Of a DNA stretch of 5,563 bases, positions 502 to 5,202 are shown piece after piece; position 1 is the first letter of the stretch, and each line of letters starts with the position of its first letter. The notes beneath the pieces were generated by a model. That model worked only from the letters and a program-made list of their open reading frames with translations. It did no database searches and was not told the origin of the DNA. This stretch comes from a virus (lineage: Duplodnaviria > Heunggongvirae > Uroviricota > Caudoviricetes): the IMG/VR virus record IMGVR_UViG_2541047438_000019. One strand, written 5' to 3'. A program made the translations under genes and the position numbers.

Positions 502-547
502 AGGCGCATACCGCTTAGTTACCGCTCTGATAACTCTTACCTGTCCT

Positions 548-582
548 GCAATGGCGCTGATGTCAATATAAAGCGCCATTGC
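548..582 (+). terminator. candidate intrinsic terminator: perfect 11-bp stem GCAATGGCGCT / AGCGCCATTGC with 13-nt loop, followed by TGCTTCTTTGCC
   Basis: Inverted repeat read directly (548-558 pairs with 572-582). The downstream tract is T-rich but interrupted, so terminator function is uncertain. On the minus strand no U-tract follows. Confidence 0.35.
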
Positions 583-819
583 TGCTTCTTTGCCGATCCC
601 GGGATGCCTTCCATTCTGATGTTTGACTTCGCCCACTGAGAAACCCTCTGTTTCCCCTTAACGCCGGGGTAGCGGAACAAAAAACTGCTGCATAGTTATT
701 AAAGTTGAACCCTGCCGTCATGTTCATACGCCTCGGGCTGGCTACTTAACCCCTGACCACTGCCGGGTAACTCGAAGTATTTCCCTGCGTTCTGTGGGGC
801 GGGGTGGGTTGGTATTTTT

Positions 820-862
820 AGTTTAATAAACATTAAACTTAAGTCAAGTAAAAACTAAACCG
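820..862 (-). promoter_or_regulatory. distal operator-like module with a sigma70-like promoter on the minus strand (TTGACT-N16-TAAACT), near-duplicate of the module at 1835-1884
   Basis: GTTTAATAAAC (821-831, palindromic) + ATTAAACT + AAAAACTAAACCG (850-862) matches GTTTATTAAAC + ACTAAACT + AAAAAAACACTAAACCG at 1846-1884. Minus-strand TTGACT (complement of 842-847) and TAAACT (complement of 820-825) are separated by 16 bp. Confidence 0.4.
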
Positions 863-867
863 CGGGA

Positions 868-912
868 CATAACAAACACAACGCTTTTGATAAAGTCGTT
901 GCGGTTGTTATG
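868..912. terminator. imperfect 16-bp hairpin (14 of 16 paired, 13-nt loop) 20 bp downstream of the parE-like stop; possible bidirectional terminator
   Basis: CATAACAAACACAACG (868-883) pairs with CGTTGCGGTTGTTATG (897-912). TTTCTATT follows on the plus strand; on the minus strand a T-rich tract follows after an 8-nt gap. Not folded computationally. Confidence 0.25.
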
Positions 913-931
913 TTTCTATTGGTAGTGAAAG

Positions 932-1210
932 TTAGGGAAACTGGCGTCTTGCGTGGATCACGTTTACTACTTCAACGCTTGATGTTGTTACGCGGTATAG
1001 AATTATATAGTTAGGGTGGGCTACAATCTCACGCAAGCCAGGTACTCTGTCGCTTGGTGGGTATAAATACGGATGTTCGGATAACGGCAGCACACAACCC
1101 CTTAATCGCTGCCATAAGCGTTCAGCCGCATCTATGTCGAAACGAGCAATATAACTAGTTATATCATCTAGGTCGGTATCTGCGCTTTCAAGCCATAACA
1201 CGGGTAACAT
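932..1210 (-). CDS. parE2: ParE/RelE-family type II toxin (ParE2-like), 92 aa
   Basis: Translation MLPVLWLESADTDLDDITSYIARFDIDAAERLWQRLRGCVLPLSEHPYLYPPSDRVPGLREIVAHPNYIILYRVTTSSVEVVNVIHARRQFP has the ParE pattern (DLDDI..YIA, EHPY, PGLRE..V..Y.I.YRV, V.V..V.HARR). ATG at 1210 lies 1 nt after the stop of the upstream small gene. The longer track ORF (to 1306) would overlap that gene; ParE proteins are about 90-100 aa. Confidence 0.85.
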   Translation of the reverse strand: MLPVLWLESADTDLDDITSYIARFDIDAAERLWQRLRGCVLPLSEHPYLYPPSDRVPGLREIVAHPNYIILYRVTTSSVEVVNVIHARRQFP

Positions 1211-1211
1211 T

Positions 1212-1403
1212 TTACTGCTTGCTCCGTTCCTTGCGCATCTTAGCAAAGCGTTCTGCCATTCTGCGCTCAACTTCGTCATGGGGAATTGCTGGGCGCGGAT
1301 CTGCAAGGCTCGTTGCTACTTTCGCACGCAGCCATTCGTTGTAACTGTTTTCTTGTTCAATGGTTTCAAATTCAGAAACCATTGGTGAAAGGGCTCTATT
1401 CAT
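1212..1403 (-). CDS. paaA2: small antitoxin partnered with ParE (PaaA2-like), 63 aa
   Basis: ATG at 1403 preceded by GGAGGA (complement of 1409-1414). Translation MNRALSPMVSEFETIEQENSYNEWLRAKVATSLADPRPAIPHDEVERRMAERFAKMRKERSKQ matches my recollection of the short PaaA2 antitoxin of E. coli O157:H7. It sits immediately upstream of the ParE gene in the same operon. The track N-terminal extension (to 1457) would overlap the regulator gene. Confidence 0.8.
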   Translation of the reverse strand: MNRALSPMVSEFETIEQENSYNEWLRAKVATSLADPRPAIPHDEVERRMAERFAKMRKERSKQ

Positions 1404-1423: not shown

Positions 1424-1795
1424 TCAGGCGCGGCGGCATTTTTGCGCCGCAATCCATCTCGCTATGAGATCTTCCATTGATTCTTTTTTCTGCTTTAACT
1501 CGCTGATTATCTGGCGTTGCTCATCCTCAGGGAAGGCTGAAAAAATCTGCAATAATTCCAGTTGATTAGACGTTAACCCTGCATGTGGTGGAGAACCCCC
1601 CGGTTGTTCTGCGTATTCCGCATCCAGATACCCTTCCGGCATCCCGTATGTTTGCTCTATTCTTCTGGCAGCCTTTTCTCCAAACGAGGCTCTCCCACTC
1701 ATTAGTTGAGATAGGTAGCTCTTCTCTTTGGGTGGCAGAGTTTTATCTTTAAACCACTCCTTGAGACGTAAACGGCGAATTTCTTTTTTTTGCAT
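1424..1795 (-). CDS. paaR2: CI-like phage repressor / regulator of the toxin-antitoxin operon (PaaR2-like), 123 aa, N-terminal helix-turn-helix, no LexA-type peptidase domain
   Basis: Helix-turn-helix-like N-terminus (KSYLSQLMSGRASFGEKAARRIEQTYGMPEGYLD) resembles phage CI repressor DNA-binding domains. Sits at the cI position, divergent from a cro-like gene across an operator-bearing spacer. Start taken at ATG 1795 (MQKKEIRRL); the track start at GTG 1858 would add a hydrophobic 21-aa extension lying over the operator region. Confidence 0.8.
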   Translation of the reverse strand: MQKKEIRRLRLKEWFKDKTLPPKEKSYLSQLMSGRASFGEKAARRIEQTYGMPEGYLDAEYAEQPGGSPPHAGLTSNQLELLQIFSAFPEDEQRQIISELKQKKESMEDLIARWIAAQKCRRA

Positions 1796-1892
1796 GTGGT
1801 AATTATCTTTAGTAATCACTAAACAAGCAAATACTTGACTTAATGGTTTATTAAACACTAAACTCGCAAAAAAACACTAAACCGAGGAAGGT
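1796..1892. promoter_or_regulatory. divergent promoter/operator region (OR-like) between the repressor gene and the cro-like gene
   Basis: Three direct copies of CACTAAAC (1817-1824, 1856-1863, 1875-1882); palindromes TTTAGT-N4-ACTAAA (1808-1823) and GTTTATTAAAC (1846-1856). Candidate plus-strand promoter TTGACT (1835-1840)-N18-TAAACT (1859-1864) for ydaS. Candidate minus-strand promoter TTGCTT (complement of 1825-1830)-N16-GATAAT (complement of 1803-1808) for paaR2. Confidence 0.6.
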
Positions 1893-2195
1893 ATGACATT
1901 AAAAGAGTTTATTAAATCATTAAGGGTTGGTGATGCTAAGAAATTCGCGGCCAGACTTGGTGTATCGCCATCTTACTTATCGCAAATGGCGTCTGGACGA
2001 ACAGCTATATCTCCAACCCGCGCCCTTATGATCGAATCTGCGACGGAAGGCCAAGTAAGTAGGGCGGAGCTACGACCCCATGATTGGGAGCTTATTTGGC
2101 CTGAGTATGCGAGCGGCATTCGTTTGGGGCAAACACATGTAGTTCATGCTGAAGGTGATTGTAGTGCATGCTTATCTGATGGAGTTGATTCATGA
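1893..2195 (+). CDS. ydaS: Cro-like helix-turn-helix regulator, YdaS family, 100 aa
   Basis: ATG at 1893 preceded by GAGGAAGG. Translation contains FAARLGVSPSYLSQMASGRTAISPTRALMIESATEGQVSRAELRP, the YdaS/Cro-type helix-turn-helix pattern. First gene of the rightward operon, divergent from the repressor. Confidence 0.85.
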   Translation: MTLKEFIKSLRVGDAKKFAARLGVSPSYLSQMASGRTAISPTRALMIESATEGQVSRAELRPHDWELIWPEYASGIRLGQTHVVHAEGDCSACLSDGVDS

Positions 2196-2630: not shown

Positions 2631-3140
2631 ATGAGTAATGACAAAAAATTGACACTGAGCGTTTACGAAAACAGTCCGCACATCTGGCGTGGCGGTTTAT
2701 CTGATGTGGAGCTGGCAGAGTGGTTGATACATAAAGCTAATGCGCTGCTCTGGCGTTTGTCAGCCAGAGAACAGCGCAAGGAAACCAGAATAAAGCTGGC
2801 TGATGCAGAAGCGTGTGCCGGGCTTATTGAGGATTATACAAATCTTGGTATTTCTTCAGCAGAGAGTGATCCCATTCAGCCTCTGAGCAGGGAGTCAATC
2901 CAGCACGCTGGTTGTATGGCACATCTTGTAACTGCTCGTCAACATGAGGTGGGTATTGGATCACTTCCGGCGGGATATTCGCTGATTCCAGAGCTGGTTG
3001 AAGCAAGAAAATCAGTTCAGAAAAAGAGAGATGACGCACTTCAATTATTGAGAGAGCACTATGGCGCGATACCAGAATGCGAACAGCGTCGATACCCTGA
3101 AGGTTATGAATGGATGCAGTCTCTTTTTGAAGTTCGCTAA
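2631..3140 (+). CDS. hypothetical protein, 169 aa, no recognisable family
   Basis: ATG at 2631 (MSNDKKLTLSVYEN...) 13 nt after the ydaT stop, weak SD. Same strand as the surrounding early operon and protein-like composition (about 6 percent Gly). The track start at GTG 2580 would overlap ydaT by 38 nt. The strand is not fully resolved: antisense ORF 2824-3279 has a perfect SD (see findings). Confidence 0.5.
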   Translation: MSNDKKLTLSVYENSPHIWRGGLSDVELAEWLIHKANALLWRLSAREQRKETRIKLADAEACAGLIEDYTNLGISSAESDPIQPLSRESIQHAGCMAHLVTARQHEVGIGSLPAGYSLIPELVEARKSVQKKRDDALQLLREHYGAIPECEQRRYPEGYEWMQSLFEVR

Positions 3141-3357: not shown

Positions 3358-4449
3358 ATGCGTGATTACGCAAAAGTTTCTCCGCGATTCTGGCTGGGAG
3401 AAACGGGGAGAGAACTTAGAAAGGCGGGTGCAGAAGCGCAAGTTGTTGCTTTTTACCTGATGACATCCCCTCACGCAAATATGCTGGGTTTGTATTACCT
3501 GCCAGTTTTATACCTTGCTCATGAAACCGGGCTTGGTCTGGAAGGGGCTTCAAAGGGGCTTAAAAGGGCTGTTGAAGCTGGTTTTTGTAGCTATGACCAT
3601 GATGCAGAGATGGTCTGGGTCCATGAAATGGCAGCCTGGCAGGTTGGGGAAACGTTGAAGCCTGGCGATAACCGTTGTGCAGGTGTCAGGAATGAGTATG
3701 CATCATTACCTGAAAACGCTTTTCTGTCAGTGTTTTACGACAGATATAAAACGGATTTCCATCTGGATGTGAGGCGGAATAATAGCCGAAATTCGGTAAG
3801 GGGCTTCGAAGGGGCTTTTAAGGGGCTTCGAAGCCAAGAACAGGAACAGGAGCAGGAGAAAGAACAGGAACAGGACAAAAACACTATGGTTCATGGCAAA
3901 AAAAACACCACGAACCAGGCAGGGGATGTTCAGACCGTCAATCCTGGTCAGCCAGCAGGCACGACACCGGAAGCCGATTCGGGCGCTGTGCAGCAGGTGA
4001 TGACCGCAGGGTCGGAGCAATCACACCAACTGCAGCAGCCTGAAGCCGATTCCGCCATTCAGCGGGAAGCCGATCGGGTAGTCCCGGAAAGCACCGGGCA
4101 GTCTGTGGGACGAGTGGATTATCCGGATGTGTTCGAACAGGTCTGGCGGGAATACCCGTTGCGTGCTGGGGCAAACCCGAAGAAATCCGCTTTCAGTGCC
4201 TGGAAGGCCAGATTGCGCGAGGGGGTGCCACCAGAGACCATGCTGGATGGTGTGAGGCGTTACGCGAGATACCTGGCGGCGACCGGGAAAGCGGGAACGG
4301 AATTTGTTCAGCGAGCGACGACGTTTTTTGGGCCGGACCGGAATTTTGAAAACCCCTGGTTGCTCCCGGTAAGCGGCACGAACAACCAGCGTTGTGTGAA
4401 TCATATTTCTGAACCGGATACCGAAATTCCGCCGGGATTCAGGGGGTGA
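3358..4449 (+). CDS. phage replication initiation / replisome-organiser protein (O-like role), 363 aa, with low-complexity linker
   Basis: Sits immediately upstream of and coupled to a DnaC-like loader gene. C-terminal segment FEQVWREYPLRAGANPKKSAFSAWKARLREG...FFGPDRNFENPW resembles the conserved motif of phage replisome-organiser proteins as I recall it. Iteron-like DNA repeats lie inside the gene. Start chosen at ATG 3358 (GAGGT 5 nt upstream); an in-frame ATG at 3247 lacks an SD and is the alternative. Confidence 0.7.
   Translation: MRDYAKVSPRFWLGETGRELRKAGAEAQVVAFYLMTSPHANMLGLYYLPVLYLAHETGLGLEGASKGLKRAVEAGFCSYDHDAEMVWVHEMAAWQVGETLKPGDNRCAGVRNEYASLPENAFLSVFYDRYKTDFHLDVRRNNSRNSVRGFEGAFKGLRSQEQEQEQEKEQEQDKNTMVHGKKNTTNQAGDVQTVNPGQPAGTTPEADSGAVQQVMTAGSEQSHQLQQPEADSAIQREADRVVPESTGQSVGRVDYPDVFEQVWREYPLRAGANPKKSAFSAWKARLREGVPPETMLDGVRRYARYLAATGKAGTEFVQRATTFFGPDRNFENPWLLPVSGTNNQRCVNHISEPDTEIPPGFRG
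3542..3570. repeat. iteron-like direct repeats, cluster 1: AAGGGGCTT / AAAGGGGCTT / AAAAGGGCT at 10-11-bp spacing
   Basis: Read directly: GAAGGGGCTTCAAAGGGGCTTAAAAGGGCT. The repeat period is not a multiple of 3, so codon repetition does not explain it. Confidence 0.5.
3798..3830. repeat. iteron-like direct repeats, cluster 2: three tandem 11-bp units AAGGGGCTT(C/T)(G/T); candidate replication-origin core inside the initiator gene
   Basis: AAGGGGCTTCG (3798-3808), AAGGGGCTTTT (3809-3819), AAGGGGCTTCG (3820-3830), one helical turn apart, followed by a hexanucleotide repeat and an A-rich stretch. Confidence 0.55.
3838..3876. repeat. tandem hexanucleotide repeat (GAACAG/GAGCAG) encoding an EQEQEQEKEQEQ linker
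   Basis: GAACAGGAACAGGAGCAGGAGAAAGAACAGGAACAGGAC read directly, in frame with the replication gene. Confidence 0.8.
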
Positions 4450-4455
4450 TGTGGC

Positions 4456-5202
4456 ATGAAAAACATTGCGGCAGCCGGGGTTCTTGAACGTATTCGCAGA
4501 CTTGCACCACAGGCGTCGGTTCCACCGTACCGGACGGTGGAGGAGTGGCGGGAATGGCAACTTGCTGAAGGACGAAAACGCAGCGAGGAGATTAACCGCC
4601 AGAATCACCAGTTGCGGGTGGAAAAAATCCTGAATCGTTCGGGCATCCAGCCTCTGCACAGCAAATGCTCGTTTGCGAATTATCAGGTGCAGAACGACGG
4701 GCAAAAATACGCGCTGAGCCAGGCCAAATCCATAGCTGACGAACTGATGACCGGGTGCACGAATTTTGTGTTCAGCGGTAAAACCGGCACCGGGAAAAAT
4801 CACCTTGCAGCGGCGATGGGTAACCGGCTGATGGCGAAGGGGCGCAGCGTGATTATCGTCACCGTGTCTGATGTCATGAGCGTGTTGCATGACAGCTACG
4901 ACAACGGCAAATCCGGGGAAAAATTTTTACAGGAGCTTTGCAGTGTTGATTTGCTGGTCCTGGATGAAATAGGCGTTCAGCGGGAGACGAAAAACGAGCA
5001 GGTGGTATTACACCAGATAATTGATCGCCGGACAGCATCACTGTGCAGTGTCGGGATGTTAACAAACCTGAATCATGCCGCAATGAGTACACTTCTTGGT
5101 GAGAGGATTATGGACCGCATGACCATGAACGGTGGTCGATGGGTGACGTTTAACTGGGATAGCTGGCGTCCAAATGTCAGCAATATGAGGGTTGTGAAGT
5201 AA
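4456..5202 (+). CDS. DnaC-like replicative helicase loader (IstB/DnaC AAA+ ATPase), 248 aa
   Basis: Walker A FSGKTGTGKNHLAAA and Walker B LLVLDEIG. Overall resemblance to E. coli DnaC and the Rac prophage DnaC paralogue. AGGGGG at 4441-4446, 9 nt before ATG 4456, which lies 6 nt after the stop of the initiator gene. Confidence 0.9.
   Translation: MKNIAAAGVLERIRRLAPQASVPPYRTVEEWREWQLAEGRKRSEEINRQNHQLRVEKILNRSGIQPLHSKCSFANYQVQNDGQKYALSQAKSIADELMTGCTNFVFSGKTGTGKNHLAAAMGNRLMAKGRSVIIVTVSDVMSVLHDSYDNGKSGEKFLQELCSVDLLVLDEIGVQRETKNEQVVLHQIIDRRTASLCSVGMLTNLNHAAMSTLLGERIMDRMTMNGGRWVTFNWDSWRPNVSNMRVVK

Follow-up and report, generated by a model that had tools for sequence, protein, structure and literature searches.

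The DNA at positions 820–862 is the leftward promoter and operator region (PL/OL) of a CP-933P/Sp12-type E. coli prophage, a real element that is already known as PL933P. It was named, together with its operators OL1–OL3, in strain EDL933 by Jurenas et al. (mBio 2021; PMC8630535). Because the element was published in 2021, 820–862 adds no new biology. New here are a precise map of the immunity cassette, at 819–2185, and the conservation of the PL/OL design across the repressor family, both of which support the published assignment. All coordinates refer to the window, the whole 5,563-nucleotide stretch that was analyzed.

The window covers the part of a lambdoid prophage that holds its immunity and replication genes. 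Over positions 500–2200, it matches prophage Sp12 of E. coli O157:H7 Sakai, as well as many other O157 genomes, with 100% identity, and over 1–2341 there is only one difference from Sakai Sp12 (L001), at position 125. According to the published description, Sp12 and the CP-933P prophage of EDL933 are identical (PMC8630535). The genes around the element are as follows.

932–1210, minus strand: parE2, toxin gene (Pfam ParE_toxin, E = 1.9e-16).
1212–1403, minus strand: paaA2, antitoxin gene (Pfam PaaA2, E = 1e-19).
1424–1795, minus strand: paaR2, the CI-analogue repressor gene, with a leaderless mRNA.
1893–2195, plus strand: ydaS, the Cro analogue (Pfam YdaS_toxin and HTH_3), which also represses PL (PMC8630535).
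2192–2617, plus strand: ydaT.
Rightward after ydaT, plus strand: an unnamed open reading frame (2631–3140), an O-like gene (400 aa) and a DnaC-like gene.

The Sakai annotation labels the repressor gene “CI” and ydaS “Cro.” PaaR2 is represented in the PDB by its N-terminal domain only (7nkv, 8c3k, and 8c3l). The right part of the window, beyond ~2620, is unlike Sakai Sp12, where a 963-bp replication gene directly follows ydaT, and, at a coverage of at least 80%, the window as a whole was absent from all complete E. coli genomes. Its source is therefore another mosaic with the same immunity cassette, which leaves the element unaffected. Within the O-like replication gene, repeated GGGGCTT-containing units (AAGGGGCTTCGAAGGGGCTT...) occur in direct and inverted orientation at 3537–3578 and 3793–3845; they look like the origin iterons of a lambdoid ori.

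Published reporter data bear directly on the element. The −35 and −10 hexamers of PL933P are identical to those of PR933P, and a PL933P-gfp fusion was repressed ~100-fold by PaaR2 or YdaS, with no effect of YdaT, when the regulators were over-expressed from pBAD (PMC8630535). PaaR2, YdaS, and YdaT behave like lambda CI, Cro, and CII (PMC8630535). We located the cloned fragment in the window from its primers.

814–931, minus strand: the PL933P-gfp fragment, bounded by primers F-PL-SacI (931 to 911) and R-PL-BamHI (814–835).

Given these primer positions, the tested fragment contains all of 820–862. Since it ends at 814, the native start site, which we place near 813 by prediction, lies outside the reporter. 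A search for work after 2021 on OL binding or looping by PaaR2 returned nothing beyond PMC8630535 in the searchable literature; the later papers on this system found there concern YdaT and add nothing on OL.

The element and its counterpart between paaR2 and ydaS (the OR region) consist of the following parts. The labels OL1 and OL2 are our own naming and are not matched to the published OL1–OL3 numbering.

820–825, minus strand: PL −10 hexamer TAAACT, which is the outer half-site of OL1 plus one base.
821–838: OL1, an 18-bp quasi-palindrome, GTTTAATAAACATTAAAC, sharing 16 of 18 positions with the OR 18-mer at 1846–1863.
842–847, minus strand: PL −35 hexamer TTGACT (spacer of 16), inside the 11-mer ACTTGACTTAA (839–849).
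843–860, minus strand: OL2-like 18-mer, GTTTAGTTTTTACTTGAC, overlapping the −35, with 4 mismatches to the consensus and 22 bp from OL1.
1796–1892: OR region with PRM and PR; 18-mers at 1807–1824 and 1846–1863.
1835–1840 and 1859–1864: PR −35 and PR −10, followed by an IR4-like element near 1865–1882.

An earlier note on this DNA had called 820–862 a near-duplicate, and an inverted copy, of the operator/promoter at 1835–1884. All of the elements that it named are present in both places. The local alignment that it had proposed, run here as 812–866 against 1796–1892, gave a score of 37 in the direct orientation and of 30 in the inverted one. In shuffles matched for composition, the score was 15.9 ± 2.6 and reached 37 in 0 of 2000 cases, and 812–866 is the best match to the OR region in the window. 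The palindrome GTTTAWTAAAC occurs exactly at 821 and 1846, with a single 1-mismatch copy at 1907 (chance expectation 0.13 in the window); at least three matches were seen in 0 of 200 shuffles. The 18-bp frame GTTTA-N8-TAAAC is restricted in the window to 821–838, 1807–1824, and 1846–1863 (expected 0.14). The 11-mer ACTTGACTTAA is found at 839–849 on the minus strand and at 1833–1843 on the plus strand, in PR (expected 0.10), and CTAAACCG occurs only at 855 and 1877. The OL2-like 18-mer includes the A-tract-CTAAACCG element, in which CTAAACCG occupies 855–862.

A promoter scan recovered the minus-strand TTGACT-N16-TAAACT that the earlier note had described, running from 847 to 820 and lying 85 bp beyond the parE2 stop; on the plus strand, it returned TTGACT-18-TAAACT at 1835–1864. 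The PL −10 agrees with the −10 consensus at only 4 of 6 positions. The term “inverted copy” holds for the −35 block ACTTGACTTAA but not for the 18-mer or the A-tract/CTAAACCG element, which are direct copies of their OR counterparts. The 18-mer is close to a perfect palindrome, so that the outer half-site yields a TAAACT −10 on either strand; since either half-site can supply the −10, moving the −35 to the other side reverses the promoter.

At OR, the start sites of PR933P and PRM933P have been mapped, and PaaR2 (~78 bp) and YdaS have been footprinted on the 97-bp intergenic region, which carries 18-bp inverted repeats with the half-site consensus GTTTAGTAA (PMC8630535). An operator-like sequence, GTTTATTAAATCATTAAG, lies at 1907–1924 within the first ydaS codons; it contains the 1-mismatch 11-mer and, behind OL, ranks second among the matches to OR. 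Judged from this resemblance, it may be a weak extra site for PaaR2 or YdaS. It falls within the published footprint fragment, and the main text of the paper, so far as available to us, does not discuss it (PMC8630535).

We next asked how widely the two-site layout occurs by scanning one genome per species for loci encoding PaaR2 relatives. This gave 27 loci (L003–L029) with repressors 43–76% identical to PaaR2, in hosts including Photorhabdus, Xenorhabdus, Yersinia, Erwinia, Morganella, Raoultella, Arsenophonus, Massilia, Mycoavidus, and others. Counting 18-mers with at most 3 mismatches to the two OR consensus sequences, we found 48 sites at OR in 26 of the 27 loci and 22 sites downstream of the repressor gene in 20 of the 27, between +445 and +2293 relative to the repressor start. 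The other 142.7 kb of these loci had 0 sites. At OR, the strongly conserved layout is a pair of 18-mers, spaced by ~38 bp, that precede the repressor start. Downstream, every site is on the repressor strand and has the same build, in which a −35-like hexamer (TTGACT or TTTACT) and a GTTTA half-site come 16–18 bp before the −10. When the site of the window was pooled with 21 sites of relatives, the −10 was exactly TAAACT, formed from the end of the 18-mer, in 19 of 22. Of 22 relatives, 14 also have a GTTTA half-site farther upstream, at −22 to −24. Because the peptide patterns used to retrieve the relatives cover the recognition-helix region, the conservation of the operator sequence is partly built in; this does not apply to the existence of the second site, to where it lies, or to how it is oriented. 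Together with the published PL933P data, these comparisons agree with the proposal of the earlier note that 820–862 is an OL/pL-like, repressor-controlled promoter directed leftward, away from the repressor operon.

Several further features of these loci were observed. Across L003–L029, one N-terminal helix-turn-helix sequence and near-identical 18-bp operators are joined to different C-terminal halves, either short PaaR2-like tails or LexA/S24-like domains (e.g., L018–L021, L023, and L026). The cargo between the repressor gene and OL also varies (0.1–1.6 kb). The PR-proximal 18-mer of the window (1846–1863) has the opposite orientation, relative to the repressor gene, from that in most relatives, and agrees at every position (0 mismatches) with their consensus when this is reverse-complemented. 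In Xenorhabdus khoisanae (L015, ~3625–3990), the OR operators stand ~340–376 bp before the repressor start, compared with the usual ~30–115 bp, and the interval holds tandem copies of a ~21-nt unit (AGTGTTATGTGTACGGTAAAT-like).

Closer relatives within E. coli delimit the element as part of an exchangeable block. Among the PaaR2-type variants (L001, L002, L030, and L031), the 18-mer and the −35 are invariant, and the variable bases are at 840, 849, 854, and 863–869. A prophage of E. coli YDC107 (L032), which has a LexA-family repressor, matches the window only at 1–208, 651–818, and 2186–2617. Since L032 shares these flanks and not the block between them, we read that block as a cassette exchanged as one unit.

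819–2185: the immunity cassette, exchanged whole in L032, running from OL/PL (−10) as far as the end of ydaS.

In place of the 18-mer, L032 carries a GTAAC-N4-GTTAC palindrome at both the OL and OR positions. Thus, the operator motif at both sites changes in concert with repressor specificity in this heteroimmune relative. A consensus scan of L032 for promoters and terminators gave no PL-equivalent promoter and no terminator; a candidate PL-equivalent promoter has a poor −10, and a terminator hairpin was then confirmed by folding. Of the mosaic junctions, 818/819 falls in the PL start region and 2185/2186 at the boundary between ydaS and ydaT. The shared sequence ends a few bases from the predicted PL start, which fits a common leader served by alternative promoter-operators.

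Two features flank the promoter.

651–818, minus strand: leader of the leftward transcript, 98% identical to L032, where it precedes ydfA (DUF1391).
867–913, minus strand: long hairpin with a 22-bp stem, between the parE2 stop and the PL −35.

The hairpin folds with −24 kcal/mol (z = −4.5, equaled in 0 of 200 shuffles), and it is at the equivalent place that L032 has its canonical terminator hairpin with a U-run. Because of the strength of the hairpin and the position of the L032 terminator, we read 867–913 as the end of the repressor-operon transcript; it is probably a terminator or insulator of the paaR2-paaA2-parE2 transcript, like the t_imm terminator. The fold of the leader (505–813, minus strand) was unexceptional (z = 0.28), and thus nothing in it points to a structured RNA of the put or nut type. 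An Rfam scan of the whole window at E ≤ 1 returned only a chance match to a miRNA model, on the 867–913 hairpin; no known RNA family was matched at the element or in its 165-nt leader. No N-like open reading frame was recognized downstream of PL.

The genes to the left of PL point to the operon that it would control. The ydfC gene at 1–208 is 98.6% identical to ydfC of the K-12 Qin prophage, and 651–678 matches the ribosome-binding region of Qin ydfA. Further left, Sakai Sp12 has the DicF RNA, a DicB-like gene, an exonuclease gene, xis, and int. The DicF gene is at 5097–5148 of L001 (Rfam, 76.7 bits), on the PL strand and ~350–400 bp past the left end of the window; copies are also present in phage Evi (L002) and in L032. 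Because ydfC, the ydfA ribosome-binding region, DicF, and the DicB-like gene follow it, PL appears to be the counterpart of the DicA-repressed dicBp of Qin and, by this sequence comparison, would head a homologue of the Qin dicBF operon. With DicF downstream of PL, PaaR2 may control one DicF copy of O157:H7.

The segment between the leader and ydfC has its own features. On the plus strand, 301–501 encodes a 66-aa CxxC...CxxC protein (NCBIfam ECs_2282_CxxC), and a hairpin with a 10-bp stem follows this gene at ~558–590. A 118-aa minus-strand open reading frame, 280–636, overlaps it in antisense and is the one annotated in phage Evi. Neither this frame nor a 54-aa minus-strand frame at 563–727 has an NCBIfam match, and 280–636 has no Pfam match either. 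We take 280–636 to be probably spurious, as the NCBIfam match falls instead on the plus-strand gene. In Sp12, the gene order is that of an early-left operon; in the window, the opposite-strand gene at 301–501 intervenes. As this gene stands in the way of the leftward transcript, transcription may stop short of ydfC and DicF.

Taking this evidence together, we are confident that the whole of 820–862 is best explained as PL plus OL of the CP-933P/Sp12-type immunity region, working by occlusion. OL1 (821–838) would cover the spacer and supply the −10 (825 to 820), and the second 18-mer (843–860) would overlap the −35 (847 to 842). PaaR2, as dimers or higher oligomers, would bind both OL sites through its N-terminal helix-turn-helix by contacts that are predicted here, and YdaS, when made, would bind them likewise. 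Either protein would then occlude RNA polymerase and shut off the leftward transcript from ~813, which would run through the leader into ydfC and on to the DicF RNA, the DicB-like division inhibitor, the exonuclease, xis, and int. On the other side, the 867–913 hairpin would probably end the paaR2-paaA2-parE2 transcript just before PL. If so, paaA2-parE2 would occupy the cargo slot held by rexAB in lambda.

The two operator clusters may also act together. PaaR2 is reported to octamerize in solution (De Bruyn 2019, as cited in PMC8630535), and looping was raised in the paper on the basis of this octamer, by likeness to CI (PMC8630535). By analogy with lambda, bridging of OL and OR over ~1 kb by octameric PaaR2 is plausible. 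We tentatively propose, as a reading with somewhat less than an even chance of being correct, that octameric PaaR2 loops OL to OR (~1 kb) around paaA2-parE2, and that the two-site layout with an operator-supplied −10 is ancestral to a family with one helix-turn-helix specificity. This family would span Enterobacterales and some Burkholderiales, with a C-terminal domain of either the PaaR2 type or the RecA-cleavable S24 type. If this is true, prophages of different genera and induction modes could share immunity.

The same promoter and operators could instead work with OL and OR independent of each other, PaaR2 repressing PL locally with no loop, and we give this close to an even chance. The distance between OL and OR in the relatives ranges from ~0.5 to 2.4 kb with no obvious constraint. 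Moreover, relatives with a LexA-like S24 C-terminal domain keep the two-site layout, which therefore does not need the PaaR2-type oligomerization domain. However, the reported octamer of PaaR2 resembles that of lambda CI, so far as the cited account goes (PMC8630535), and the two adjacent 18-mers at OL, with at least two at OR, have the geometry for a bridge from dimer pair to dimer pair.

We regard it as unlikely that PL is a relic that fires on a plasmid and yields no meaningful transcript in a cryptic prophage, with transcription halting in the leader or colliding with the convergent ECs_2282 gene. CP-933P is defective, and the published work could assign no function to the open reading frames after PL (PMC8630535). 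In addition, ydfA and ydfB of Qin-type operons are replaced here by the segment with the opposite-strand ECs_2282 gene, which has a promoter-like site at 284–311. Against decay, 593 of 5426 complete E. coli genomes (~11%) have kept the module, always beside a ParE-family gene, and its operator and −35 are invariant. It also occurs in Evi, which was deposited as a phage genome, and ydfC, DicF, and the dicB-like gene remain downstream. Finally, although the region is AT-rich and a minus-strand T-run (853 to 849) follows the strong hairpin, a chance resemblance in the toxin-operon terminator region with no promoter or operator function is extremely improbable, as the observed similarity arose in none of the 2000 or 200 shuffles, the site is conserved across genera with no off-site matches in the 142.7 kb searched, and the published reporter activity and repression contradict it (PMC8630535).

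As PL/OL, the element would control the early-left operon in a prophage found in ~11% of complete E. coli genomes, O157:H7 included, and operons of this type encode a DicB-like division inhibitor along with the DicF small RNA. It also frames the paaR2-paaA2-parE2 toxin-antitoxin module within a lambda-like bistable switch.

The closest known system is PL933P with OL1–OL3 of CP-933P in EDL933, which is the same DNA without differences in the element; only the right part of the window differs. At OL, two 18-mers are clear by our count, against three operators in the published one (PMC8630535).

Like pL/OL of lambda, the element is a second operator cluster beyond the repressor operon, with a promoter that faces away from it and is repressed by both a CI and a Cro analogue. 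Both systems have a slot for non-essential cargo between the repressor gene and OL, filled by rexAB in lambda and by paaA2-parE2 in the window. Both also have a terminator just before pL, a function that is predicted for the window, and a repressor that, in the case of PaaR2, is reported in the cited account to octamerize. Unlike lambda, the repressor belongs to an unrelated family and PaaR2 is without a RecA-cleavable domain. The operators here are an 18-bp GTTTA...TAAAC palindrome rather than the 17-bp operators of lambda, and OL and OR are ~1.0 kb apart compared with ~2.4 kb. Neither an N gene nor nutL was recognized here. N/nutL antitermination defines lambda itself and not all lambdoid phages.

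Compared with dicBp of Qin in K-12, the window differs in repressor specificity and operators, in the replacement of ydfA/ydfB, and in the toxin-antitoxin pair between the repressor gene and the promoter. PaaR2 gives a weak, sub-threshold match to the DicA model in its C-terminal part (E = 1.4e-6, 28 bits against a cutoff of 101). The two promoters share their position just after the repressor gene and the type of operon that follows them, and bistable CI/Cro-like control has been reported for both systems.
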